64,000 nucleotides of DNA from Candidatus Moraniibacteriota bacterium. GTDB taxonomy: Bacteria > Patescibacteriota > Minisyncoccia > Moranbacterales > UBA2206. The notes below the pieces were generated by a model. The model was not told where the DNA came from and ran no database searches. It worked only from the letters and a program-made list of their open reading frames with translations. A program made the position numbers and the translations under genes. How positions within the stretch are numbered: position 1 is the stretch's first letter; every line of letters starts with the position of its first letter. Shown here in pieces: positions 249 to 39,216 of this stretch. The stretch lies in the NCBI GenBank assembly GCA_013334765.1, contig JAAXWW010000002.1:21453-85452 (forward strand), read 5' to 3'.

Positions 249-572
249 ATGGAGGAGGAGATGAGAAAGACACTGAGGATTTTCCATGTGATGCTGGAAG
301 ACAAAAAAGGAACCTTTGCCGGAGTTCTTTATTGTCACAAGAAGAGGAAGCTCACAAGACTGGAAGAATTTGATACGCGCAAAACCTGTCCTGGCTGCGC
401 GTGCACCTTTCCCCTTATGAGAACGGAAATTTTCTATGTCTCATCTCTCACTCATCTTGCGCGAGTCATTGCCAAGATGTATGACATGGATGGATTGCCA
501 GTTCCCGAAAGATTTATCATGGGATACATCACCAGCCATTTAAAGACTCCCGATAAGGATATGGCGGCATAG
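249..572 (+). CDS. hypothetical protein (107 aa, Cys-rich CPGCAC motif)
   Basis: ORF in a locally GC-richer segment. No recognisable family. A strong terminator follows the next small ORF. Confidence 0.3.
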   Translation: MEEEMRKTLRIFHVMLEDKKGTFAGVLYCHKKRKLTRLEEFDTRKTCPGCACTFPLMRTEIFYVSSLTHLARVIAKMYDMDGLPVPERFIMGYITSHLKTPDKDMAA

Positions 573-601
573 TTTCCGCGGCCAATCATTATTCAGAAAC
601 C

Positions 602-805
602 ATGGAGGAATGGAAAGTTATGTCGATAGAAGACGGGATAGTGAAGTGCAAGCATCATGTTCCCGGACAATCCCCAGTGGTAACGGGGAAATTTTCCAAA
701 CCGGCTGAACCCGAACCCAAGGAAGAGCAGCCAGACAGATCCAGACATGAAGATTCTGATCGTCAGCCCGGCACAACGCCGTGCCCGTGCATGTATGAAT
801 TCTGA
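602..805 (+). CDS. hypothetical small protein (67 aa)
   Basis: ORF with charged, P/E-rich C-terminus, immediately followed by a 14-bp-stem terminator. Confidence 0.25.
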   Translation: MEEWKVMSIEDGIVKCKHHVPGQSPVVTGKFSKPAEPEPKEEQPDRSRHEDSDRQPGTTPCPCMYEF

Positions 806-5286: not shown

Positions 5287-6126
5287 CTATTTGACAGTCT
5301 CGTATCCTTTCTGCTTCCAGACATTAAGCCCCTCTGCCAATGAATATGCATTGATAACGCCCAGATCGTTAAGGCGCACCGCCGCTTTGTACGCGGCAAG
5401 GCTATCGGAATCATAAACGACTATCTTCCTGCCAAGAGGAATCTGCCTCCTTTTGGACTCCAAATCATCGGCGGTTATGTTGATCGCTCCCTTCAGATGC
5501 TCAAGAGCGAATTCCTGATTGCTCCGCACGTCAATAAGAAGAAGGTTCGGATTAGTCGCCATCCAAGCCTTCAGATCGTCAGCTTTGACATAGCTGACTT
5601 TGGCTTGATCGGAAAAGGACATCGGATCGCCGTCGTTTATGGTGGGGTTCATGCCGTTTTTCCAGGCAGAAAAACCTCCGTCGAGAAAGGAAAGATTGCC
5701 GACACCATTGTCCGAAGCAAGCGAAGCTATCTCTCCGATATTCTGAAGATCTCCGGAAGCGTCGACCACGACATAATATTTCTTGCTGTCGAGAGACGGA
5801 ATGAAAGAAGCGAAACTCTCGATCGGGATGTTCTTCGAGTCTATGATATGCTCGGACCTGAAATCGTCCGGATTCCTAAGATCGATGACGACCAGGTTCC
5901 TATCGCTGATCAGCTTGGACCTGAGGCTGTCCAGGCTTATTTTCCCTATTTTCGAAAGGTCGATATCCTTGGCTTTGATTCCATCAGCAGGACCATTTCC
6001 AGTTTTCGAATTGCCGGCATCGAAATGCGCTTTCACGAAAAATATCCCGACAACGAGGACGATTAAGGCGAAACCGACCAGAATAACCTGGACGTTGTCT
6101 TTTTTCTGATTGAGAGTTTTCTGCAT
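5287..6126 (-). CDS. membrane-anchored tandem rhodanese-domain sulfurtransferase
   Basis: N-terminal TM helix. Two rhodanese-like modules (VVIDLRNPDDFRSEHI and LLLIDVRSNQEFALEHL). Confidence 0.7.
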   Translation of the reverse strand: MQKTLNQKKDNVQVILVGFALIVLVVGIFFVKAHFDAGNSKTGNGPADGIKAKDIDLSKIGKISLDSLRSKLISDRNLVVIDLRNPDDFRSEHIIDSKNIPIESFASFIPSLDSKKYYVVVDASGDLQNIGEIASLASDNGVGNLSFLDGGFSAWKNGMNPTINDGDPMSFSDQAKVSYVKADDLKAWMATNPNLLLIDVRSNQEFALEHLKGAINITADDLESKRRQIPLGRKIVVYDSDSLAAYKAAVRLNDLGVINAYSLAEGLNVWKQKGYETVK

Positions 6127-6127
6127 T

Positions 6128-7096
6128 TTATTTTAAGACGCTTCCCAGAAAGCCGGGATTGCCGTTTATGAAATCGCTTATACTGACTTTGTTTTTCCCT
6201 TCCAATTGGACTCCTTCCAGTATGATCGCTCCTTTTCCGGCTTTGACCGTGATTTTTCCGCTGTCAGTCATTATGGCTTCGCCTTCGAAATGCATATCCC
6301 CGAAATCAATATCGCTCAAGGATATGCTGTTGAGTTTCAGCCGCATATTCGTTCCGTTCCTTTCCCAAAAGGTGAATATTCCCGGCCAGGGACAAAGAGC
6401 CCTGAATCGGTCATAAATGGATCCCGCGTCCTCGGACCAAATCACATGCCCGTCGCTTCTTTCAATGAGCTGGCAAAGGGTAGCCTTGGAACTGTCCTGA
6501 GGATGGGACTCGATTTTCCTTTCCACCCAGAGCGGAAGGGTTTTCAAAAGCAATTCCGATGAAACAGCAGAAAGCCTCAGGAGCAGCTCCGGATATGTCT
6601 CATCGCTTCCTATTGCAATCTCTTCTTGTGCGATGATTTCTCCCGTATCAACGCCTTTATCCATCAGCATTATGGTTGTTCCGGTCGTTGTTTCTCCATT
6701 CAGGATGGCATTCTGAACAGGCGATGGACCGCGATATTTCGGCAGCAGGGACGGATGGATATTTATCGCTCCGAAGCCCGGAAGGCTCAGCACGGCTTCA
6801 GGCAGGATCTTTCCGTAGGCAGCGACAATGAGAAGGTCTGGCTGCTGCTGCTCAAGCTCTTTTATTGCCGCATCGTCGAATTTCTTCGGATCAAGCACCT
6901 TTATCCCATTTTTTTCTGCAAGCGCTTTGACCGAAATATCATGCGCCTCCTTTTTCTTTTCAGGCTCCTTGCCGATATTCGTGTATACGGAAACTATGTT
7001 GTATTTCTCCTGGATAAGGCGATCAAGGATGATTGCGGCGAAAGAAGAAGTGCCCATAAAAACAGTCCTGAGACCGATGGCTTTTTTTGTCTGCAT
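6128..7096 (-). CDS. fmt: methionyl-tRNA formyltransferase
   Basis: HPSLLPKYRGPSPVQNAIL formyltransferase signature plus C-terminal Fmt domain. Directly downstream of def. Confidence 0.9.
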   Translation of the reverse strand: MQTKKAIGLRTVFMGTSSFAAIILDRLIQEKYNIVSVYTNIGKEPEKKKEAHDISVKALAEKNGIKVLDPKKFDDAAIKELEQQQPDLLIVAAYGKILPEAVLSLPGFGAINIHPSLLPKYRGPSPVQNAILNGETTTGTTIMLMDKGVDTGEIIAQEEIAIGSDETYPELLLRLSAVSSELLLKTLPLWVERKIESHPQDSSKATLCQLIERSDGHVIWSEDAGSIYDRFRALCPWPGIFTFWERNGTNMRLKLNSISLSDIDFGDMHFEGEAIMTDSGKITVKAGKGAIILEGVQLEGKNKVSISDFINGNPGFLGSVLK

Positions 7097-7140
7097 AATT
7101 CGGATGTATTTATTCGGATTATCTATTTTTATTTTTCCGG

Positions 7141-7611
7141 CTATTTCCTGTCTATGAAAAGCGTCCCGTCCAAGTGGTCGATTTCGTGCTGAAGAGCTCT
7201 CGCCAACATCCCTTCGGCTTCTATTTCGATTTTATCTCCCTCTTTCGTTTCAGCGTGCACTTTGACCTTCTTGGATCTTTTGATCGGTATGAACTCTCCA
7301 GGGAAAGACAGGCATCCCTCTTCCATGACTTCCTTCCTGAGCGATTTGGAGACTATTTTCGGATTTATCAATATGAAAGTCTTCCTTTCCATTTTAATGA
7401 CGCAGAGACGCAGGTTTTCCCCGACTTGCGGAGCCGCGAGACCTAGACCGTTATTGGCTTCCAGCGTATCGAGCATGTCGAAGATGAGCTTCTTGATCTT
7501 GGGATCAGTTGGGTCTTTTATCTTCTTGTTCTTTTTCCGGAGTATCGGATCCGGATAGGTGATTATGGGCAAATCCATTAATTTATTGTTCGGCTTGTTA
7601 TTTCCTGCCAT
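7141..7611 (-). CDS. def: peptide deformylase
   Basis: GLAAPQVG, EGCLSFPG and HEIDHLDG motifs. The start at 7611 overlaps the priA stop (TGATG coupling). An alternative start at 7578 (MDLPIITYP) is possible. Confidence 0.85.
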   Translation of the reverse strand: MAGNNKPNNKLMDLPIITYPDPILRKKNKKIKDPTDPKIKKLIFDMLDTLEANNGLGLAAPQVGENLRLCVIKMERKTFILINPKIVSKSLRKEVMEEGCLSFPGEFIPIKRSKKVKVHAETKEGDKIEIEAEGMLARALQHEIDHLDGTLFIDRK

Positions 7612-11424: not shown

Positions 11425-12954
11425 ATGAACAAAACAAGAGTCAGATTCGCACCATCACCGACCGGATATCTTCATATCGGAAGCCTCCGGACGGTTCTGT
11501 ATGATTATCTTTTCGCCAAAAAATCCGGCGCTGATTTCATTTTGCGCGTCGAGGATACCGACAGGAAGCGCTATGTCCCCGGATCGGTCGAAAAACTGAT
11601 CGAATCGCTCGAATGGGCAGGCTTGAAATGGGATGAAGGAATTTTCACGCAAAAAGAAATAGCCGACGACAGAGCAACCGTCACTGAATCTGTCTCATAT
11701 CCTGGAACATTCGAAGCCGGGGAATACGGCCCATATGTCCAGTCCGAACGGCTGGAGCTGTATAGGAAATATGCCGAGGAATTAGTGGAGAAAGGACATG
11801 CCTACTATTGCTTCTGTATGCCGGAGAGATTGGAAGAACTGAGAAACCAGCAATCGGCCGCTAAGCAGGCGCCGATGTATGACAGATACTGCCTCACCGA
11901 TTTGAGTCAGGAAGAGATAAACAAAAAACTGAAAGAGGAATGTCCGCATGTCATCCGCCTCAAAGTTCCCAAAGATGAAATCATAGAATTCGAAGATGTG
12001 GTTCGAGGCAAAGTGAAATTCAACACCAACACTACTGATGACCAGGTGCTTTTGAAATCGGACGGGTTCCCGACATATCATCTGGCGGTCGTCGTCGATG
12101 ATCATTTGATGAACATCACGCATGTCATCCGCGGCGAAGAATGGTTGCCCAGTACGCCGAAGCACATCATCCTATACAAAGCACTAGGATGGGAACCGCC
12201 GAAATTTGCCCATCTTCCGCTGCTTCTCAATCCCGACAAAACCAAACTATCCAAACGCCAGGGCGATGTCGCCGTTGAGGATTATACCGCGAAAGGATAT
12301 CTCAAAGAAGCGATCATAAACTTCGTCGCGTTGCTCGGTTGGAATCCGGGAGACGGCGAAACCCAGGAAATTTTCAGCATGGAAGAATTGATTGAAAAAT
12401 TCGACTTGTCCCGTGTCCATAAAGCCGGAGCTGTTTTCGATATCAAGAAATTGGATTGGATAAACAGCGAATATATAAAGAGGCTTTCCCTGGATGAACT
12501 GCATGAAAAAGCGCTGCCGTTTTTCGAAAAGAAGGATTTCTATATCAACGCCCCGACAGAAAGAAAAACGGATGAATATCTCAAAAAAGTATTGGCTATC
12601 GAGCAGGAAAGGCTAGCCAAACTTTCCGAGGTGGGGGAGAGCAACAGATTCTTTTTTCAGGATATCGATTATGCGAAGGAACTATTGAAATGGAAAGAAT
12701 CGAGCGAAGAAGATACGAAGGCTTCTCTCCAGAAAACGAAAGATGTCTTGGAAAAGATTTCCGATTCCGATTGGACAAGAGAAAATCTGCAGAATCTCCT
12801 CATGGAGGCAGCCGGCGAAAAGAGGGGAGACCTGCTCTGGCCGCTCCGCGCATCGCTCACCGGAGAACAGAAATCGCCTTCCCCTTTCGAAGTGGCTTGG
12901 GTGCTTGGCAAAGATGAGTCATTGAAAAGAATAGGACGAGCTATTGAAAAATAG
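11425..12954 (+). CDS. gltX: glutamyl-tRNA synthetase
   Basis: PSPTGYLHIGS (HIGH) and KLSKRQG (KMSKS) motifs. Class I GluRS architecture. Confidence 0.9.
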   Translation: MNKTRVRFAPSPTGYLHIGSLRTVLYDYLFAKKSGADFILRVEDTDRKRYVPGSVEKLIESLEWAGLKWDEGIFTQKEIADDRATVTESVSYPGTFEAGEYGPYVQSERLELYRKYAEELVEKGHAYYCFCMPERLEELRNQQSAAKQAPMYDRYCLTDLSQEEINKKLKEECPHVIRLKVPKDEIIEFEDVVRGKVKFNTNTTDDQVLLKSDGFPTYHLAVVVDDHLMNITHVIRGEEWLPSTPKHIILYKALGWEPPKFAHLPLLLNPDKTKLSKRQGDVAVEDYTAKGYLKEAIINFVALLGWNPGDGETQEIFSMEELIEKFDLSRVHKAGAVFDIKKLDWINSEYIKRLSLDELHEKALPFFEKKDFYINAPTERKTDEYLKKVLAIEQERLAKLSEVGESNRFFFQDIDYAKELLKWKESSEEDTKASLQKTKDVLEKISDSDWTRENLQNLLMEAAGEKRGDLLWPLRASLTGEQKSPSPFEVAWVLGKDESLKRIGRAIEK

Positions 12955-12987: not shown

Positions 12988-14253
12988 ATGCAAAAAAATA
13001 GAAAAACAAACCGAATATTTTTCTCCGGAATCGCGATGACTGGAATAGTCCTATCGGCGCTATATTTTTCAACATTCTCATTCGCAAATGCATCATTGTC
13101 TTTCAATTGCGATGACTATGAGGGAGACATGAAAGACGAATGCGAAGAGAAACAGAAAACTGCCAGGACACTGGAAAGCATAATAAAACTGAAGGAAAAA
13201 CAAGCCGATGTCATCACGACGCAGCTTGATACCATAAACAAGCAACAAGAAAAGAATGTTTCAGACCTTCAGCTTACAAAAAAAACGGTTGAGGATCTCG
13301 CAAGAAAAATAAACGATCTCGACCGCGACATAGCCGACAAAGAAAATCTCATACAGTCGCAAAAAAAACTTCTCACCGGGCTGATGCAGTCATACTATGA
13401 ATATGACCAGCAAGGAACCCTGGATGTTGTTTTGGCTGATCAGGATTTCTCGACGACCTTCGCCCAATCGGATAATATCGAACAGTCAGAAATGAAGGTC
13501 TCCGACATATTGAACACGATAAAGGAAGCCCGCCAGGAATTGCTCCAGGAAAAATCAGATATTTCCGAAAACAAAGAGAAACATTCCGAGATGAAAGAGA
13601 ATCTGGAAAAGAAAGGATTGGACCTCCAATATACCGAAGACCAGAAACAGAAACTGCTTGGACAGACCCAGGCTGAAAAAGAGAAATACGAAAAGCAATT
13701 GAATGATGTCCGCAATGAAATCTATGACCTGGAATCGAACAAAAGCGTTGACTATGGAAACATACCAGCAGCCAAGGGCGGATATTTCGATTATCCCGTT
13801 TCGAAGCCTTCCATAACCCAAAGCTACGGATGCTTGCAGAATTCATTCGCAAAAGCATCCTATCCGGCGTGCAACGGAGGGAAAGGAGGATTCCACAACG
13901 GATTCGATTTTGGAAGCAATAGCGGCTCGACGATATTCGCCGTAAAAAGCGGAAAGGTCATAGGTTCAGGAAACAATGGAAGATATGCCTATGGGCAATG
14001 GATTGCGATCGATCATGGCGACGGCCTAGTGACACTATACGGGCATCTAAGCAAAAAATACGTTTCAAAGGGCGATCAGGTCGATGACGGAGAAAAAATA
14101 GGAATCATGGGAAACACCGGTTATTCGACCGGAACCCATCTTCATTTTTCAGTTTTCGACAAAAAAAGCTTTGAAACCGTAGAATCAACTAAAGTCGATG
14201 GATTGATACTTCCGACTGGCGCCAGCGTGAGCCCGGGAAGATATTTGAAATAG
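12988..14253 (+). CDS. M23-family peptidoglycan endopeptidase with coiled-coil (EnvC-like)
   Basis: N-terminal TM, long coiled-coil, C-terminal LytM motif HNGFDFG...YGHL...GNTGYSTGTHLHFSV. Confidence 0.8.
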   Translation: MQKNRKTNRIFFSGIAMTGIVLSALYFSTFSFANASLSFNCDDYEGDMKDECEEKQKTARTLESIIKLKEKQADVITTQLDTINKQQEKNVSDLQLTKKTVEDLARKINDLDRDIADKENLIQSQKKLLTGLMQSYYEYDQQGTLDVVLADQDFSTTFAQSDNIEQSEMKVSDILNTIKEARQELLQEKSDISENKEKHSEMKENLEKKGLDLQYTEDQKQKLLGQTQAEKEKYEKQLNDVRNEIYDLESNKSVDYGNIPAAKGGYFDYPVSKPSITQSYGCLQNSFAKASYPACNGGKGGFHNGFDFGSNSGSTIFAVKSGKVIGSGNNGRYAYGQWIAIDHGDGLVTLYGHLSKKYVSKGDQVDDGEKIGIMGNTGYSTGTHLHFSVFDKKSFETVESTKVDGLILPTGASVSPGRYLK

Positions 14254-14385
14254 TTTCAAAATACCGAAAAAAACAATCAGCCTTCCCCTATCAAAAAACT
14301 AATTTCAAGAGGGGATAGCCAGACGGGAAATTCAAGACACATATACCCCCGATTGGTATTATCAAAACAGACCCAAAGAAACCAA

Positions 14386-14420
14386 ACAAGCGACTCCTTA
14401 ACCAATCGCTTGTTTTTTTT
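14386..14420 (+). terminator. putative terminator downstream of M23 peptidase gene
   Basis: 7-bp stem acaagcg / cgcttgt plus T8 run. Confidence 0.4.
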
Positions 14421-14891
14421 ATTTTCTAAAAAATATTATTTGCATGCACATAATTTTATTTCATATTTTTTATTTTCATCAAAATAATTTCAAGAAAATA
14501 TTTTTTCGAATCGATGATCGCTTTTTGTCCATTCATGTCATCGGATTCACAAAAACAATGATTCCTGAAAAATCATCAAAAAACGACCTCAAATTTTGAG
14601 CTCTAAGCGTCTTTGAAAAATATGGACATACATCTATGTATCTGTATTTGATCGATTCTGGAAAAAAATCAAAGCATTTTATTTTTGAAATAAAAAAAAA
14701 TAAAAAAATAATATAACGACAGCTAATAGGTTAAGAGTAGAGGAATGAAATAAAAAAATATTTTTTATTATCTGCGTATTAAAAAACAATCTGTTCTGAA
14801 AAAATAAAATACGGATAGGGAATAGCGGGTTCAAAAGACGCCGAGGCTCAAATAGGCGTATATATGGGAATAAGCCCTTTTTCTGAAATGC

Positions 14892-14925
14892 ACAGTGTCG
14901 TAAAAGATACATTGTGCGACACTGT
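14892..14925. repeat. perfect 9-bp inverted repeat (hairpin) in AT-rich island
   Basis: acagtgtcg ...16 nt... cgacactgt. Confidence 0.5.
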
Positions 14926-15112
14926 ATATATTTCCGCAGGGACAACTCCCCGCTTATTTTCTTCCTATTTTCGAACTCAATAATACCTTCGGAAATATTC
15001 TCCTCGCTCCTCTATTCCTCATATAAAAAAAGCGATTCAAAAAAAATAATACTCTTCTTCATCTATTCCTGCCTCCGTCTGTTATCCTCGTATTTTAAAT
15101 AGTTTTCTTTAT

Positions 15113-15141
15113 TTGACATAAATGTATTTTATGTTATAAAT
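15113..15141 (+). promoter_or_regulatory. sigma70-like promoter facing GC-rich segment
   Basis: TTGACA-16 nt-TATAAAT. Confidence 0.4.
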
Positions 15142-15142
15142 A

Positions 15143-15460
15143 ATAACTCTAAAAAAGCCGCCCGGTGAAATGATCTCCACTGGGCGACTATGAAATGTGC
15201 AAGGAACGGAGCGGGCCTATCTAGGCAGCTGCCTTCTCTCTCGCTAAGGGACAACCGTGCTCCGCTGAGCAGAGGATGACCTCGGCAGGATCGTTAGCCC
15301 GCAAGCATGGACACGCTCTCGGATTCCTGACCGGACATGGTTTTTTAGCGAGATTATCCCCATGAACATGGCCCACGGATTCCGATCCTTCCCTAATCAT
15401 ATGGCGTTACCCACCTTTTTAAAAGGTTTAATCCTCTTGACCAACAAAGCCAAGTTCCCT
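15143..15460. other. GC-rich structured non-coding segment, candidate ncRNA (identity and strand unresolved)
   Basis: About 300 nt at GC near 55% inside a segment at about 25% GC. No ORF. Multiple palindromes (ggcagctgcc). Bounded by a plus promoter and a minus terminator. A minus-strand promoter TTTACA-17-TACAAT lies at 15615-15643. Confidence 0.3.
15151..15188 (-). terminator. strong minus-strand rho-independent terminator
   Basis: 11-bp stem (gccgcccggtg / cactgggcgac, one G-U) followed by UUUUUU on the minus strand. Confidence 0.55.
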
Positions 15461-15664
15461 TCCATTATTGCCTCCATGTAGAGAGGCCTTCTCTACTGAA
15501 TAAATGGCCAGGAAACCGAAAACAAGCACAACGCAAAAGACTAGAGAAAGCAACATTGGGCAATTCCCTCGCTTGTTTATGTTGATATTTGTCAAGGACC
15601 GATTTAATTTCCGTATTGTAGCGCTTATATGGATTTATGTAAATAGCAGCGAAGTGATGGGGTG

Positions 15665-15693
15665 TTGACGATCTATTCGTATTATGATACATT
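15665..15693 (+). promoter_or_regulatory. promoter for small ORF
   Basis: TTGACG-17 nt-TACATT. Confidence 0.4.
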
Positions 15694-15721
15694 CTCAGGC
15701 TAGGCAAAAGGAGGCCGAGAG

Positions 15722-15871
15722 ATGAAAGGGATAATGTCCTATCTTTCAAGAGTTTTGGAATGGTGGCAGATAATAGCGTTATTATTGATAATAATCGTAA
15801 TACTACTGCCCCTCATCTGTTCATATTCCATATGGATCCACTCCATACTAATAAGAAACCTTTTCAATTAA
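15722..15871 (+). CDS. 49-aa hydrophobic small protein (MKGIMSYLSRVLEWWQIIALLLIIIVILLPLICSYSIWIHSILIRNLFN)
   Basis: AAAGGAGG Shine-Dalgarno 7 nt before ATG. Upstream promoter and downstream hairpin. Below the ORF-track size cut-off. Confidence 0.4.
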   Translation: MKGIMSYLSRVLEWWQIIALLLIIIVILLPLICSYSIWIHSILIRNLFN

Positions 15872-15905
15872 GCCGCTGCTCCCAAACGTGGGAACGGCGG
15901 CTTTT
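15872..15905 (+). terminator. putative terminator after small ORF
   Basis: Imperfect hairpin gccgctgctccca/aac/gtgggaacggcggc plus TTTT. Confidence 0.3.
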
Positions 15906-15938
15906 AATGTCGTGCTATGAATCTTCTTCAGATGAGAC

Positions 15939-16319
15939 TTATTTTTTCTTCCGATAATCCTCTATCGCCGCGTGCAATGCGTCGCTGGCCAGGTTGGAGC
16001 AATGCATCTTGATCGGTGGCAGTCCGCCAAGCGATTCGGCTACCGAATCCCTTGAGATTTTCATCGCTTCATCGATGGTTTTCCCTTTTGCCATATCAGT
16101 GACCATCGATGAGGTGGCAATCGCGCTGGCGCAGCCAAGGGTTTCGAACTTGATATCCGAAATGAACTCCCCTGCCGTCTTATCCTTCTTGACCTTGATA
16201 TATATCTTCATCAAATCGCCACAGACCGGATTCCCGACCATGCCGGTTCCGCTCGGGTTCTTGATGACGCCCTGATTATGAGGGCGCGTAAAATGCTCTA
16301 TGACTTTTCTTGAATACAT
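15939..16319 (-). CDS. nifU: Fe-S cluster assembly scaffold NifU/IscU
   Basis: NPVCGDLMKIYIKV, ETLGCASAIATSSM, MHCSNLA: three conserved Cys of the U-type scaffold. Confidence 0.85.
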   Translation of the reverse strand: MYSRKVIEHFTRPHNQGVIKNPSGTGMVGNPVCGDLMKIYIKVKKDKTAGEFISDIKFETLGCASAIATSSMVTDMAKGKTIDEAMKISRDSVAESLGGLPPIKMHCSNLASDALHAAIEDYRKKK

Positions 16320-18098: not shown

Positions 18099-19829
18099 TT
18101 ACACAGAAATCTGCTGCAGCTCGCTCAGTTTCTGATAGACTCCGCCTTTTTCGAGAAGCTCCTTGTGGTCTCCTGATTCGACGATGCGTCCGTTTTCAAT
18201 GACCAGGATCAGATCAGCCTTCCTGATGGTGCTCAAACGATGGGCGATGACGAAAGTCGTCCTGTTCTTCATCACTTCCTGGAGCGCCTCTTGAACATAT
18301 TTCTCCGATTCGCTATCAAGCGCGCTGGTCGCTTCGTCAAGGATGAGGATCTTCGGATCGCGAAGGATCGCCCGAGCTATCGCCACTCGCTGCTTCTGCC
18401 CGGTCGAAAGCTTCACGCCTTTGTCTCCGACCACTTGGGAATATTTCTTTGGAAAAGACATAATAAAATCATGGCAATTGGCTGACTTGGCAGCCGCGAT
18501 AATCTCTTCTTCTGTCGCATTCATCTTGGAATATGAGATATTGTTCCTGATAGTGTCATTGAAAAGAGCAATCTCTTGCGGCACGATCGCGATCTGCCTT
18601 CGAAGATCTCCAAGCCTTATTTTCCTCGTATCGATCCCATCAAGCATCACTTTCCCCTTGCTAGGGACGTTATAGAGAGAAATCAGGTCCACCAACGTGC
18701 TTTTCCCCTCTCCGCTCTTGCCGACAATCGCTATCATCTGTCCAGGTTCAGCTTTAAATGAGATGTTTTCCAGAACAGTTTCTTTGTCATATGAAAAGCT
18801 GACGTTTTTGAACTCAATCTCGCCTTTGCAGCTTTCGAGAGCTATGGCATTCGGATTATCATAATCCTCCGTCGCTTCGGAAAAAATCCTGTCAGCCCGC
18901 TCAATAGTCACCAAGCTTTCTTGGAACTGCTTATACCGGCTGCCAAGGCCGGAAATAGCGGTGGTAGCATAGCCGACATATCCCAGTAGCATGATGAATT
19001 GCCCAATAGTTATTCTTCCGATACTGACAAGATACATCCCGGCAGAAAACAATGATAGGAAACTTATAGCATAGATGAAATCCTGCCAAGAAGAAACCTC
19101 AGACCATAATCCCAGTTGTTTTATATGGGATCGCCTTCCTTTTTTGAAATTGCGGATATTGTTGCTACATTCGAAATCTTCCGCCACATTCGATTTGATA
19201 CTGATGATGTTCTGCGTCCGATCGAAAATATCGCCATATGCTTTCTCATGGATCTTGTTCATTTCCGTCTGGCATTCAATGACCGGCTTGGTCTTTTTCA
19301 CGGTAGCCCAGAAATATGTCAGGGTAAAAACGACGTATATCGCTGCCAATATCCAATCGATCCAAGCGATCACGGCAAAAGCCAGGAATGAAGTCAGCAA
19401 GTTAGGCAATATTTCGAAAATCCCTTCGGAAGACAAATCAGCTATTCGCATGTCGGCCCGAGTAAATCGTTCCAATAACTCGCCGATTTTCTGTGATTTA
19501 TGAAAGGCCAGTGGTAAGCGAGACAAGCGATCGACTGATTTAACAGTCAGGTCAGTTGCCACTTGGTATCCGATGTCCCAAGAACGTCTTTCCCGAATTC
19601 GTCCAAACCAACTGCCCATGAGGCTACCGGCTGTCCAGACTGCCAGAAGAACAAGCACTGATCGCTCAAAGAAAATTCCCTTCGTCACGATATCCACCAC
19701 GCGGCCATAAACTACTGGCAAAACCAATTGGATCGCATTCTCCAACACGACAAAAACAGCCGTCGCATATATGGCTTTCTTATACGGCTTCAGGTATTTT
19801 ATGATCGGTTTGAGTTTTCCGGTTTTCAT
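18099..19829 (-). CDS. ABC transporter, fused permease/ATP-binding (MsbA-like exporter)
   Basis: Six-TM N-terminal domain. Walker A GKSGEGKST, signature LSTGQKQRVAIARA, Walker B ILILDEATSALD. Confidence 0.85.
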   Translation of the reverse strand: MKTGKLKPIIKYLKPYKKAIYATAVFVVLENAIQLVLPVVYGRVVDIVTKGIFFERSVLVLLAVWTAGSLMGSWFGRIRERRSWDIGYQVATDLTVKSVDRLSRLPLAFHKSQKIGELLERFTRADMRIADLSSEGIFEILPNLLTSFLAFAVIAWIDWILAAIYVVFTLTYFWATVKKTKPVIECQTEMNKIHEKAYGDIFDRTQNIISIKSNVAEDFECSNNIRNFKKGRRSHIKQLGLWSEVSSWQDFIYAISFLSLFSAGMYLVSIGRITIGQFIMLLGYVGYATTAISGLGSRYKQFQESLVTIERADRIFSEATEDYDNPNAIALESCKGEIEFKNVSFSYDKETVLENISFKAEPGQMIAIVGKSGEGKSTLVDLISLYNVPSKGKVMLDGIDTRKIRLGDLRRQIAIVPQEIALFNDTIRNNISYSKMNATEEEIIAAAKSANCHDFIMSFPKKYSQVVGDKGVKLSTGQKQRVAIARAILRDPKILILDEATSALDSESEKYVQEALQEVMKNRTTFVIAHRLSTIRKADLILVIENGRIVESGDHKELLEKGGVYQKLSELQQISV

Positions 19830-34088: not shown

Positions 34089-35676
34089 TCAGCGATACGC
34101 TGATTCCCAGCCACACCCACACATATGCCATCAATATTCCAGCGTTGAACAGATTGGGAATGACGATTGCGAACCAGGATGCGGTCAGGAATATCCCGAT
34201 CGCCTGATCGGCATTGCCCTTCTCTTGAAAAAAACATCTCAATCCTCCGAAAAGAATATACCCAAAAACAGCCACGAAAGAAAGAATCCCGATGATTCCG
34301 CTTCCGAGCCAGATCTCGAGGAAGATATTGCTGGAATTAAGGGTCGCGCCGTTCTCATCTTTCCCGAGAACTTGCCCGATACTCCCCCATCCGATTCCGA
34401 AAACCGGACTCTTCTTGATTTCCTGCCAGGATTTCTTGTATATCTCGGCACGGATATTGGACGTGGGATCTTTCCTGGAAATTTCTCCAACGGAAAATCC
34501 CCTTGATTTTTCGCTTTCGATATCTTCAAGATCGATATGCTCGCATCCGGTATTTTCCAGTTGCGAAATATTCTCGATCGGATTTTTGAGGGAATCGAAT
34601 TCTGATTGCGTCTCGCAGGCAACCGTTATTTTCTGCAGTCCCGAGCTGGTGCTTGTCGCCCTGTTGAACAGCTGGAAAGAAGTGAGATGGAAAATGAAAA
34701 CGAAAGCCAAGGCTATGACGGCCATCGAAACGATGCCTATTTTCATTTTCGCGAACTCCCAAAAATTCCACTCTTTGCGCATAACTCGGATGAATGATAC
34801 GCACAAAAAAACGACAGTCACCGCCGCTGCGCCAAGCCAAGCGGAACGCGACACGGCAATGAAGAGAAGGATGAAAATAGGGATGAGAAAAACATATAGC
34901 AAAATTTTTCCGATTCTTGAAAGCGGATCATCCAAAGATTCTTCCGCACTTCTTCTCTCATAGAAATACATAAGTGCATAAACGGCAGCGAGCGCGAAAA
35001 CCAAAAACATCCCGAGCCAATCCGGCTCAGGAAAAGTCGCGTTCGGGCGCCCCGGCATAACCTCGAAAGAGGATTGACCGAGAATGTTCCTGATGTTCTG
35101 CCAAATGCCATATGCGGAAACTATCAGCACGGAACTCAGGAAAAACGGGGCTATTCTTCCGAGATCAGTTCTATCCTGAACATAATTCCTGACAAGGAAA
35201 TACAAGGCGGCGAAACTGGCAAGGATTATGGACAACTTGAAACTCGCGCCTTTCGATGAAGAGAAGGCCGCGCTCAGGAATCCGGAAACCGCTATTGCTA
35301 TGACCAGATAGTCCCAAAGAGTGATTTTCGCTAATTTGAATCCGAGTTTTTTCGAAGCGAGCCTTGCGATGACTGCAAGGATGACGAGCGCGCCCAAAAG
35401 CTGATACGGACGGACCATAATGCCGATATTTTCCGGAGCAAGATTCACATTTTCAATTGTTATCACTGAAATGAAAAACAGGAATGCCCAACTCGGACGA
35501 TACATCGCCAATCCCAGAGCAACCAAGGCAAAAAAGAAAAAATCGCTCGCTCCAAGCGGCAATACTCCGGTATTTTGAAGGACAATAAGAAAAAACACCC
35601 CCGATGAAGCCCAAAAAACCAGCCCGACCCGGGTCTTGTTGAGGCTATTGACAAAATATTTTATTTGTGCTAGCAT
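34063..35676 (-). CDS. O-antigen ligase/Wzy-like polytopic membrane protein
   Basis: At least 10 TM helices with a large loop. Size and topology match Wzy_C-type polymerases or ligases in glycan loci. Assigned by context and topology only. Confidence 0.45.
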   Translation of the reverse strand: MLAQIKYFVNSLNKTRVGLVFWASSGVFFLIVLQNTGVLPLGASDFFFFALVALGLAMYRPSWAFLFFISVITIENVNLAPENIGIMVRPYQLLGALVILAVIARLASKKLGFKLAKITLWDYLVIAIAVSGFLSAAFSSSKGASFKLSIILASFAALYFLVRNYVQDRTDLGRIAPFFLSSVLIVSAYGIWQNIRNILGQSSFEVMPGRPNATFPEPDWLGMFLVFALAAVYALMYFYERRSAEESLDDPLSRIGKILLYVFLIPIFILLFIAVSRSAWLGAAAVTVVFLCVSFIRVMRKEWNFWEFAKMKIGIVSMAVIALAFVFIFHLTSFQLFNRATSTSSGLQKITVACETQSEFDSLKNPIENISQLENTGCEHIDLEDIESEKSRGFSVGEISRKDPTSNIRAEIYKKSWQEIKKSPVFGIGWGSIGQVLGKDENGATLNSSNIFLEIWLGSGIIGILSFVAVFGYILFGGLRCFFQEKGNADQAIGIFLTASWFAIVIPNLFNAGILMAYVWVWLGISVSLIENRTYNR

Positions 35677-36264: not shown

Positions 36265-37431
36265 CTATTCCACGCTTTCAATAATATTCAAAACTTTCTT
36301 CGTGAAAACCTTCCAGGAAAATTTCTTTGCCCGTTCTTTAGCTCGCTCAGACAGCGACCGGCGAAGCTCATGATTCATGATCAGGTTCTTCATGACCATC
36401 GCCACATCTGCGACATCGTTCGGTTTGCAATAAAGGACGCCGTCTCCCCCAACCTCCGGCAGGGACGATGTCTTGGAAGCGATGACCGGCTTTTCTTGAT
36501 TCATCGCTTCAAGCACCGGCATGCCGAATCCTTCATATAAGGAAGGATAGATGAAGAAGAGCGACTCAGCATAAAGAGCCGGCAGACTGTCTTGAGGGAC
36601 GCTCCCGAGCAGTTCCACGTGTTTTTTGAGGTTGAGTTCAGCCACGAGATTTTCAGCGTCCGTCACAAGCGGAGCGAGTTCCGGCATCAGATGTCCGAAA
36701 ATGGCCAAGCGCGGAAAATCATGAATGAAATGCTCGCGAGAATTCCTATCGAGAAGCATCTTGTATGCCCAAATCACGCTTCCTATGTTCTTGCGCAATT
36801 CCATTCCCCCGCCAGCGAAAATATACCCCGGTTTCAGTTTGTATTTTCCCAACACCTTTTTGCGCGCCTCGGCGGACGGCTTTTTCTTGTATATCCTATC
36901 GACATCGATATAGTCGACGGCGATCTTGTCGCCCGGAATTCCGAGATGATTGATGATGTCTTTTTCGGTGTGCTTCGAAACAGCGATCAGCCTATCCGCT
37001 TTCTTGATGGCCGCTTCGATCATGTTCTGATAAATCTTCTTTCTCAGATTATTGAGATATTCCGGGAACAGTTTCGGAATGATGTCATGCACCAGCACGA
37101 TGTGCTTGATGCTTTTCGGCATGACAGTCGGGCATTGATAGAGGCTCAGGAAAACTTCGCAGCCGTCTTTCTTGGCGCGTTTCGGAAGAGCATATTTTTC
37201 CCACCAGATCTTGCGGATGAGATCGTCGCGACGATAGAGCGACGGCAAGAAGGCTTCGCATTTGAAGCCGGACGGAAGCTCGAGGCCTTTCGGCAGCTCT
37301 TCTTCCAGATACAATATGAATTCGTCTTTCTTGTTCGCAACGCCAGAAAGCTCTCGCAGGAAGTTAAGAGTGACTTGTCCGATACCGGTATTCGGTTTTC
37401 TGAGAAACGAAGCGTTTATTCCTATTTTCAT
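36265..37431 (-). CDS. family 4 glycosyltransferase
   Basis: EGFGMPVLEAMNQEKPVIAS... Confidence 0.8.
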   Translation of the reverse strand: MKIGINASFLRKPNTGIGQVTLNFLRELSGVANKKDEFILYLEEELPKGLELPSGFKCEAFLPSLYRRDDLIRKIWWEKYALPKRAKKDGCEVFLSLYQCPTVMPKSIKHIVLVHDIIPKLFPEYLNNLRKKIYQNMIEAAIKKADRLIAVSKHTEKDIINHLGIPGDKIAVDYIDVDRIYKKKPSAEARKKVLGKYKLKPGYIFAGGGMELRKNIGSVIWAYKMLLDRNSREHFIHDFPRLAIFGHLMPELAPLVTDAENLVAELNLKKHVELLGSVPQDSLPALYAESLFFIYPSLYEGFGMPVLEAMNQEKPVIASKTSSLPEVGGDGVLYCKPNDVADVAMVMKNLIMNHELRRSLSERAKERAKKFSWKVFTKKVLNIIESVE

Positions 37432-38874: not shown

Positions 38875-39216
38875 TTTCCCATGAATATATTTACCTTTTC
38901 TGCCTTGCCTTATCCAAGATAAGCAGTACCAGTATCAATATCAAGATTATGACAGAAAATCCAAACAATTCAATAACATTTTTTAATATCCCGAAAAAAA
39001 CAACGTCGCAATCCATTCCATCGCTCCCGGCATTATATTTTGTCCGATCATCCCTAAGAGGATAAATAGTAAAAAGGCCACAAGCATCAAAAAAACGTGT
39101 GGTTTTTCATCTTTTCTATTTCTGAATAAAACCACTTATTGATTTTCATTTTTGTTTTTTTATTTGTTACAATTTTTATGCTTTATATTATACCACATTT
39201 AAAGCTTATACATTAC

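Follow-up and report, generated by a model that had tools for sequence, protein, structure and literature searches.

We analysed a 49-codon open reading frame (ORF) on the plus strand of a 64,000-nucleotide (nt) stretch of contig JAAXWW010000002.1 from a Candidatus Moraniibacteriota bacterium, the whole of which is called the window below. The ORF occupies the right end of an intergenic region of 1.7 kb between convergent genes and belongs to a compact arrangement made up of the following features.

15657-15905, plus strand: lineage-specific segment of about 200-250 nt containing the promoter-like site, the Shine-Dalgarno (SD) sequence, the ORF and the hairpin (MAFFT alignment and blastn; boundaries approximate)
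15665-15693, plus strand: promoter-like site TTGACG-17 nt-TACATT, 9 of 12 consensus matches, predicted start near 15700
15707-15714, plus strand: SD sequence AAAGGAGG, followed by the 7-nt spacer CCGAGAG and ATG 15722
15722-15871, plus strand: 49-codon ORF, from an ATG-AAA start to TAA (15869-15871), as given by the sequence and its ORF translation
15870-15903, both strands: G+C-rich hairpin common to the convergent ORF and iscU, overlapping the ORF stop codon

Promoter, SD, ATG, frame and hairpin are colinear and together fill the segment of about 0.2 kb. The promoter and the SD AAAGGAGG 7 nt before ATG 15722 were both located where a preliminary description of this DNA had placed them. A TG is located two bases ahead of the -10, and the leader is about 22 nt long. 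The duplex of the SD at ATG 15722 with the anti-SD sequence has an energy of -11.8 kcal/mol, which is consistent with its description as perfect, with the caveat that the ordinary genes of the genome use no SD. The hairpin reported to follow the ORF was also recovered; it folds with -23.6 kcal/mol on the plus strand and -24.3 kcal/mol on the minus strand (z = -5.6 on both strands), and none of 200 plus-strand shuffles folded as well. After the hairpin, the plus strand carries the U-run UUUUAAUG and the iscU strand carries UUAAUUG, a terminator polarity that favours the ORF transcript. The minimum free energy (MFE) fold of 15700-15912 paired the GGAG within the SD with CUCC near 15826, and the whole RNA had z = -3.65, partly owing to the terminator. 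This one single-sequence fold is suggestive, as weak evidence, of a possible sequestration of the SD in the ORF mRNA. GATAAT repeats inside the ORF, spotted by eye, could be read as Fur-box-like.

The ORF encodes the peptide MKGIMSYLSRVLEWWQIIALLLIIIVILLPLICSYSIWIHSILIRNLFN. As had been described from the sequence, it is rich in Ile, Leu and Trp (12, 10 and 3 residues, respectively) and has a single transmembrane (TM) segment, with a maximum of 3.11 for the 19-residue Kyte-Doolittle mean (KD19) and 14 of 15 residues hydrophobic. The N-terminal part, MKGIMSYLSRVLEWW, bears K2, R10 and E13; the hydrophobic span covers approximately residues 16-38 and is bounded by Trp on either side (W14, W15 and W38), and its 22-residue Ile/Leu core contains Pro30 and Cys33. 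The tail HSILIRNLFN includes His39 and Arg45 and contains H, S, R, N, N and F, with one clearly charged residue. The AlphaFold2 single-sequence model consisted of one helix spanning residues 2-48 with a pLDDT of 95.6; such a one-helix model is expected for a sequence of this kind and is no independent proof. Trp residues at the interface are typical of stably inserted helices. The peptide would probably insert as one helix with Trp at both interfaces, and the charge distribution weakly favours an N-terminus on the inside.

The ORF is unannotated, and no gene is on record with its product. The window sequence is identical to Logan contig SRR11449211_7286, on which the gene caller called a 35-amino-acid (aa) antisense ORF (15739-15846, minus strand) and not the 49-aa ORF. 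The rarity of the signals at the ORF was calibrated against the 64-kb window itself. Among 2431 ATGs on both strands, 2.2% had an anti-SD duplex of -8 kcal/mol or below and 0.45% had one of -10 kcal/mol or below, while a KD19 of at least 3.0 was found in two of the 160 ATG-started ORFs of 40-70 aa, the 49-codon ORF among them. From the 0.45% SD rate and the 2/160 hydrophobicity rate, a strong SD in front of a very hydrophobic ORF of 40-70 aa is expected about 0.01 times per window, an estimate made before the promoter-like site or the terminator flush with the stop codon is counted. No other intergenic ATG-started ORF of at least 25 aa in the window reached a duplex of -10 kcal/mol or below, and the probability of 49 open codons at the local composition was 0.03. 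These results indicate that the combination of signals is unlikely to be accidental, though any single element could be. Since only about 0.01 such coincidences are expected per window, we rate the ORF as a probable real gene. The earlier proposal of an unannotated gene for a small membrane peptide is therefore reasonable, given a coherent and statistically unusual set of expression signals and a product with a single hydrophobic helix.

The genes that frame the intergenic region are listed here.

11425-12954, plus strand: gltX
12988-14253, plus strand: M23 peptidase gene
15939-16319, minus strand: iscU (NifU_N), which ends the Rrf2-iscS-iscU operon and converges with the ORF

IscU of the window matches a Candidatus Moranbacteria protein at NCBI with 100% identity; the product of ORF B (see below) is likewise on record there for a Candidatus Moranbacteria MAG, which makes the organism a Parcubacteria (CPR) bacterium. 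Beyond iscU, the minus strand carries iscS and the genes for the Rrf2 regulator and an ABC transporter (18099-19829). The arrangement in which Rrf2-iscS-iscU faces M23-gltX is kept in about 15 species-level Moranbacteria/Parcubacteria genomes, with IscS 58-67% identical. In addition, seven closer contigs (L083, L084, L085, L086, L087, L088 and L089) were retrieved using IscU as an anchor; their identity to the window reaches 89-94% for IscU, up to 90% for IscS and 88% for M23. No comparable ORF after iscU was found among the species-level relatives and the seven closer contigs. In L087 and L084, the -35 of the next promoter lies within about 27 nt of the iscU terminator, and in L084 this promoter is TTTACA-17-TACAAT; it drives a cassette of small genes that is read on the iscU strand. 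In the window, the promoter of the neighbouring cassette (15643-15615) is set about 200 extra nt away from the hairpin, and the extra nt consist of the ORF, its SD and its promoter-like site. Accordingly, the distance from the iscU stop codon to the cassette ATG is 383 nt in the window versus 162-181 nt in relatives. The window hairpin at 15870-15903 has no homology to the iscU terminators of relatives, which are A+T-rich, and instead resembles the GCCGC...GCGGC terminators of cassette genes. The most parsimonious account of this comparison is that a compact promoter-SD-ORF-terminator unit was gained in this lineage.

The G+C-rich segment next to the ORF (15150-15610), which had been taken for a structured stretch that might supply an antitoxin RNA, is a divergent two-gene coding cassette on the minus strand with its own promoter and terminator.

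15615-15643, minus strand: cassette promoter-like site TTTACA-17-TACAAT, 10 of 12 matches, same hexamers in relative L084
15428-15556, minus strand: ORF A, small protein with one TM helix, 42 aa from ATG (55 aa from TTG 15595), preceded by SD-like GAGGG (-7.9 kcal/mol)
15221-15400, minus strand: ORF B, 59-aa Cys-rich protein, NCBI hypothetical HGB08_01870, preceded by SD-like AAGGTGG (-8.5 kcal/mol)
15157-15190, minus strand: cassette terminator GTCGCCCAGTG...CACCGGGCGGC then UUUUUU, -20.2 kcal/mol, z = -5.0, GCCGCCC-type equivalents in relatives
Cassette in relatives: L083 4186-4488; L084 4310-4680; L086 about 5516-5960; L087 5535-5871; L088 from 1608 onward

ORF A is a positional analogue of TM ORFs in L083, L084, L086, L087 and L088, and its pairwise similarity to the TM ORF of L087 was not significant. 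In the alignment of ORF B across five relatives, three Cys residues are invariant, a fourth is present in most, and CP motifs are found; the proteins of the relatives are 57-65 aa long with the pattern PCP...CP...C...GCP, and ORF A and ORF B are fused in L083. ORF B is 41% identical to its L087 counterpart (pairwise E = 1e-6), whereas the DNA of ORF B is too diverged between the window and L087 for detection by blastn, indicating that ORF B evolves as a protein. A profile search found four members of the ORF B family in 5.8 billion protein clusters, none of them resembling the 49-aa peptide, and neither ORF A nor ORF B had a match in Pfam, PADLOC or PHROGs. In a joint alignment of the 49-aa peptide with the ORF A proteins only Met1 was invariant, and the identity to ORF A of the window was 13%. 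The ORF thus resembles the iscU-downstream cassettes of Moranbacteria in its locus, an SD in an SD-less genome, a G+C-rich terminator of the GCCGC type, non-host codons and a small TM product, but it is on the opposite strand, has no detectable similarity to ORF A and occurs in one lineage only. Just outside the cassette terminator, a 30-nt element, ATTTGACATAAATGTATTTTATGTTATAAA, was noted at 15111-15140; it recurs at about 4772-4801 in L084 with 1 base different and at about 6020-6049 in L086 with 5, while the cassette coding DNA has diverged beyond recognition. This element has the form of a consensus promoter TTGACA-17-TATAAA pointing into the cassette terminator, antisense to ORF B, and its dyad symmetry ACATAA...TTATGT is reminiscent of dif arms; it is a candidate for an antisense RNA promoter or a recombination site.

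The use of SD sequences differed between the genes of the host and the ORFs of the cassettes. Of the 48 genes of the window that are confidently coding, none had an anti-SD duplex of -8 kcal/mol or below (mean -0.6 kcal/mol), none of 26 housekeeping genes of close relatives fell below -7 kcal/mol, and the 84 GGAGG motifs of the window are almost all away from gene starts. On the other hand, nine of the 11 cassette ORFs in the window and relatives, ORF B included, had an SD duplex of -7.9 to -14.8 kcal/mol at proper spacing. This shows that the SD is part of a 'grammar' of the accessory locus, which the 49-aa ORF follows. The ORF shares with this SD-led group its position between iscU and the 28-bp palindrome described below, an SD and a G+C-rich terminator. 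Several core genes (e.g., those starting at 37431, 55649, 35676 and 19829, all on the minus strand) have a TATAAT-like box 7-20 nt before the ATG, which suggests that they may have leaderless transcripts or very short leaders. Two more SD-led ORFs with Cys motifs were found at 249-805 (plus strand): GGAGGAGGAG precedes ATG 261 (103 codons, CPGCAC), and GGAGG stands 11 nt before ATG 620 (61 aa, C-terminal CPC). They may form another islet of accessory small genes of the same style. The only other ATG-started ORF of 40-70 aa with a KD19 of at least 3.0 in the window, MDCDVVFFGILKNVIELFGFSVIILILILVLLILDKARQKR (41 aa; 38891-39016, minus strand), lies in a 695-nt intergenic gap, has GGGAG 7 nt before its ATG and a charged C-terminal cluster, and is followed about 15 nt past its stop codon by the terminator AAGAGAGG-TCCA-GCCTCTCTT with a T-run. 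It is a candidate for a second unannotated small membrane protein.

A 28-bp imperfect palindrome of the form 11-6-11, GTGTCGTAAAA-GATACA-TTGTGCGACAC, is located at 14895-14922. The same element is present in L002-L006, L008, L012, L013, L016, L020, L083, L086, L087 and L089, with the consensus rTGTCGCAAAA-GATAYA-TTGTGCGACAc and a conserved A-versus-C asymmetry of the arms. It occurs once per iscU/M23 convergent spacer in every related genome and is conserved better than the flanking proteins; it lies 100-190 nt after iscU in most relatives and about 1 kb away in the window. The arms resemble the XerC half of E. coli dif (GCGCATAA), and the palindrome is a candidate for a recombination site of the Xer or att type. 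At up to 7-8 mismatches there was no second copy of either the palindrome, which is single in each locus, or the 30-nt dyad; a further copy that flanked the ORF would have pointed to an insertion of the IMEX or module type. A scan of ten candidate ORFs of the window for a Xer gene was negative. Small discrete gene modules flanked by Xer sites, the 'dif modules', are described for Acinetobacter plasmids and chromosomes (PMC12907356). The present locus is similar in having small modules beside short dyad-symmetric 11-6-11 sites, with an integrase insert abutting the site in L086, but it differs in having one 28-bp site per locus and no Xer gene among the ten ORFs scanned; the likeness is drawn as a lead on the locus, not on the peptide. 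In L086 (JGI 3300027796, Ga0209373_10000693), the M23/gltX side of the palindrome is replaced at 6452-7574 by a phage integrase (PF00589), a 64-aa ORF resembling a helix-turn-helix protein and genes of unknown function, which is consistent with the palindrome or its surroundings being an integration hot spot. The locus was also considered as a replication terminus or dif region; the genes converge here and the skew peaks near 14 kb, but the 4-kb skew follows the gene strand, and we make no such claim. Between the M23 stop codon and the palindrome, the non-coding stretches 14560-14640 and 14266-14315 are conserved (e.g., AAAAAACGAcCTCAAAtTTTGAGCTCTAAG and ATGGaCATACATCTATGTATC). Over 369 nt, the region 14577-14932 and L087 share 71% identity, L083 and L011 match in shorter patches, and Rfam gave no match; these stretches may be an unrecognised small RNA or a regulatory region.

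Taken together, we consider the ORF, with a probability of roughly 0.55, to be a real orphan gene, gained recently within a hypervariable accessory locus, that encodes a 49-residue membrane peptide with a single span. According to this reading, the gene would be transcribed from its own promoter of the sigma-70 type, its message would be translated from the strong SD site, and the transcript would be terminated at the hairpin shared with convergent iscU. The locus between iscU and the 28-bp palindrome would be a hypervariable one, in which the interchangeable cassettes of the clade consist of SD-led ORFs with G+C-rich terminators and non-host codons. If made, the peptide would act on the membrane or on a membrane protein.

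The most serious rival is a chance or non-functional ORF, where the 0.2-kb insertion would be A+T-rich filler or a decayed cassette in which an SD-like purine run, an ATG and a frame with T at the second position happen to coincide, and the hairpin merely ends iscU. We regard this as unlikely on balance, though as a serious rival. Several results weigh against a genuine gene and are consistent with such a coincidence. The peptide had no candidate relative in a word-indexed search of 5.8 billion clustered proteins, nothing at E <= 1e-3 in a full phmmer search of 1.84 billion representatives, and no match at E <= 1 in Pfam, PADLOC and PHROGs, its sole match up to E = 10 being a tape-measure family of PHROGs at the chance level (E = 2.1). 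Back-translated pattern scans and tblastn found no relative in GTDB genomes (one per species), JGI metagenomes or IMG/VR, and tblastn against related genomes, which had been proposed as a check, was equally negative for all 89 fetched loci and the window. Neither a paralogue, a tandem copy nor a duplicated source of the inserted segment was found within the window, the DNA of 15100-15940 had just a 37-nt chance match to phage and plasmid records, and Rfam (gathering thresholds for the whole window; E <= 10 for 14200-16000) and ARAGORN gave nothing credible in or near the segment. By alignment and blastn, the ORF or anything similar is absent after iscU in all seven close relatives, whose homologous regions lack the segment altogether. 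The expression signals had been called textbook, which overstates the promoter, whose -10 TACATT agrees with the consensus at just 4 of 6 positions, and a scan of 8 kb returned 33 sites of that quality against 13.5 in shuffles, a false-positive rate of about 40%. The SD may be inert in an SD-less host, as host genes use none, in agreement with the finding that just 48% of Parcubacteria 16S genes showed a detectable anti-SD motif (PMC9297842); no 16S rRNA 3' end for checking the anti-SD is present in the window or the fetched loci. GGAGG motifs mostly stand off gene starts, and GGAGG, ATG and at least 49 open codons also come together by chance within genes at 34248 (minus strand) and 46669 (plus strand). 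The TM-coding stretch is A+T-rich, of low complexity and partly palindromic (GATAATAGCGTTATTATTGATAATAA), and the gene caller chose the antisense frame. The codon score of the ORF was -0.05 bit/codon, where real genes score 0.26 +/- 0.14 and spurious ORFs -0.20 +/- 0.24; 2.3% of 48-codon windows of real genes score below it, and 30% of spurious ORFs score as well. Rare codons are frequent, ATA making up nine of 12 Ile codons and TTA plus CTA four of 10 Leu codons (3% each in host genes). However, the scores of the conserved cassette ORFs (-0.18 and -0.20) are not higher, so the poor codon score points equally well to a foreign or young origin and to non-coding DNA. A mere coincidence is further opposed by the rarity, about 0.01 per window, of a duplex of -10 kcal/mol or below together with a KD19 of at least 3.0, by a frame that exactly fills the space from the SD to the hairpin, by a terminator whose polarity and style fit the ORF strand and the cassette genes, and by the strong enrichment of SDs at conserved cassette ORFs of the same locus.

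As a special case of a real gene, the peptide might be a membrane-depolarising type I toxin, its mRNA being checked by an antisense or trans-acting RNA from iscU read-through or the neighbouring segment, but we consider this improbable. The peptide is consistent with the size and TM criteria of Fozo et al. (fewer than 70 aa, with a TM stretch of at least 10 of 15 residues being I, V, L, F, C, M or A; PMC2887945), having 49 aa and 14 of 15 such hydrophobic residues. Like chromosomal type I toxins (Fst/Ldr, TisB, Ibs, ZorO and BsrG/TxpA; PMC2887945), the ORF encodes one short hydrophobic helix, has its own promoter and terminator, sits at a variable, accessory intergenic site and was missed by gene callers, and long-range pairing of the SD GGAG with CUCC within its mRNA is possible; iscU is convergent, so that its read-through would be antisense to the ORF. 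On the contrary, the promoter scan found no promoter-like site on the minus strand within or after the ORF, and the duplexes that the initiation region forms with the cassette mRNA or its antisense (z = -1.3 and -1.8) were matched by 10 and 5 of 100 shuffles. The suggestion that the neighbouring segment might be the antitoxin RNA fails in that this segment codes for ORF A and the conserved ORF B and its complementarity is at the shuffle level. Repeats around the ORF are short and at the chance level, there is no tandem copy, and phmmer, Pfam, PADLOC and PHROGs gave no similarity to Hok, Fst/Ldr, TisB, Ibs, ShoB, TxpA, BsrG or other toxin families. The tail, with one Arg and one His, appears weakly polar rather than charged, and it would be unusual for a lethal toxin to have an unrepressed, near-consensus promoter with a perfect SD. 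The bacteriocin-like peptide that had also been proposed finds no better footing. The peptide has no leader of the double-glycine or signal-peptidase type and no family match. Next to it lie iscU and a pair of small ORFs that match no family, and genes for a transporter or for immunity are absent from its surroundings; the ABC transporter gene at 18099-19829 is part of the conserved neighbourhood of the isc genes and is present also in relatives that lack the ORF. Nothing supports a toxin-antitoxin or bacteriocin role, and the peptide is like a type I toxin in shape only. A quite improbable alternative is that the product is an RNA, namely a small RNA of about 200 nt from the plus strand with a 3' hairpin complementary to the 3' end of the iscU mRNA, the ORF being incidental. 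About 205 nt are enclosed by the promoter-like site and the strong terminator, with the fold z of -3.65, and a motif TTGACC-17-TAAAAA/TGAAAA facing the iscU terminator at the equivalent place in L087 and L084 hints at an ancestral short antisense transcript. Such an RNA would leave unexplained the SD at ideal spacing, the ATG-AAA start and the frame open exactly to the hairpin, it has no Rfam match and no sequence conservation to show structure, and its overlap with the iscU mRNA is limited to the terminator. It is very improbable, finally, that the antisense ORF on the iscU strand (15739-15867, minus strand; 42 aa from TTG or 35 aa from ATG) is the real gene. It was picked by the automatic gene caller, and host genes need no SD, but it lies past the iscU terminator hairpin without a promoter-like site of its own, its codon score (-0.06) is no better, no similar sequence was found in the fetched loci, and open hydrophilic frames arise easily opposite T-rich TM-coding frames. 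This gene call opposite a TM-coding frame is a clean example of strand mis-assignment.

With regard to function, small regulatory membrane proteins such as AcrZ, MgtS, KdpF and SgrT-type products of small ORFs are conserved within genera and are encoded beside, or co-regulated with, their targets. The ORF is similar to these in encoding one TM helix of fewer than 50 aa and in being an unannotated small ORF with its own SD, but it has no orthologue even where neighbours are 90% identical, and its neighbours are the convergent iscU and the divergent cassette. An accessory or conflict-type membrane-active peptide is judged more likely than a housekeeping regulator, and the ORF is a new orphan candidate among the known kind of unannotated small membrane proteins. 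A broader and rather speculative extension of the preferred reading is that the ORF is a newly born or captured gene at a recombination hot spot and belongs to a distinct class of SD-dependent accessory small genes of Parcubacteria, comprising membrane peptides and Cys-rich mini-proteins. In that case, the SD would mark mobile or conflict cassettes that are exchanged beside the Xer/dif-like 28-bp site next to the isc operon, and the peptide would be a lineage-specific membrane-active effector. The orphan peptide is of limited value until expression is shown, and the contrast in SD use, together with the cassette locus, is more reusable and informative than the peptide alone. If this contrast holds genome-wide, it would make accessory or recently acquired small genes of Patescibacteria recognisable by a simple sequence signature, and it would bear on whether SD pairing is still used by their reduced ribosomes.

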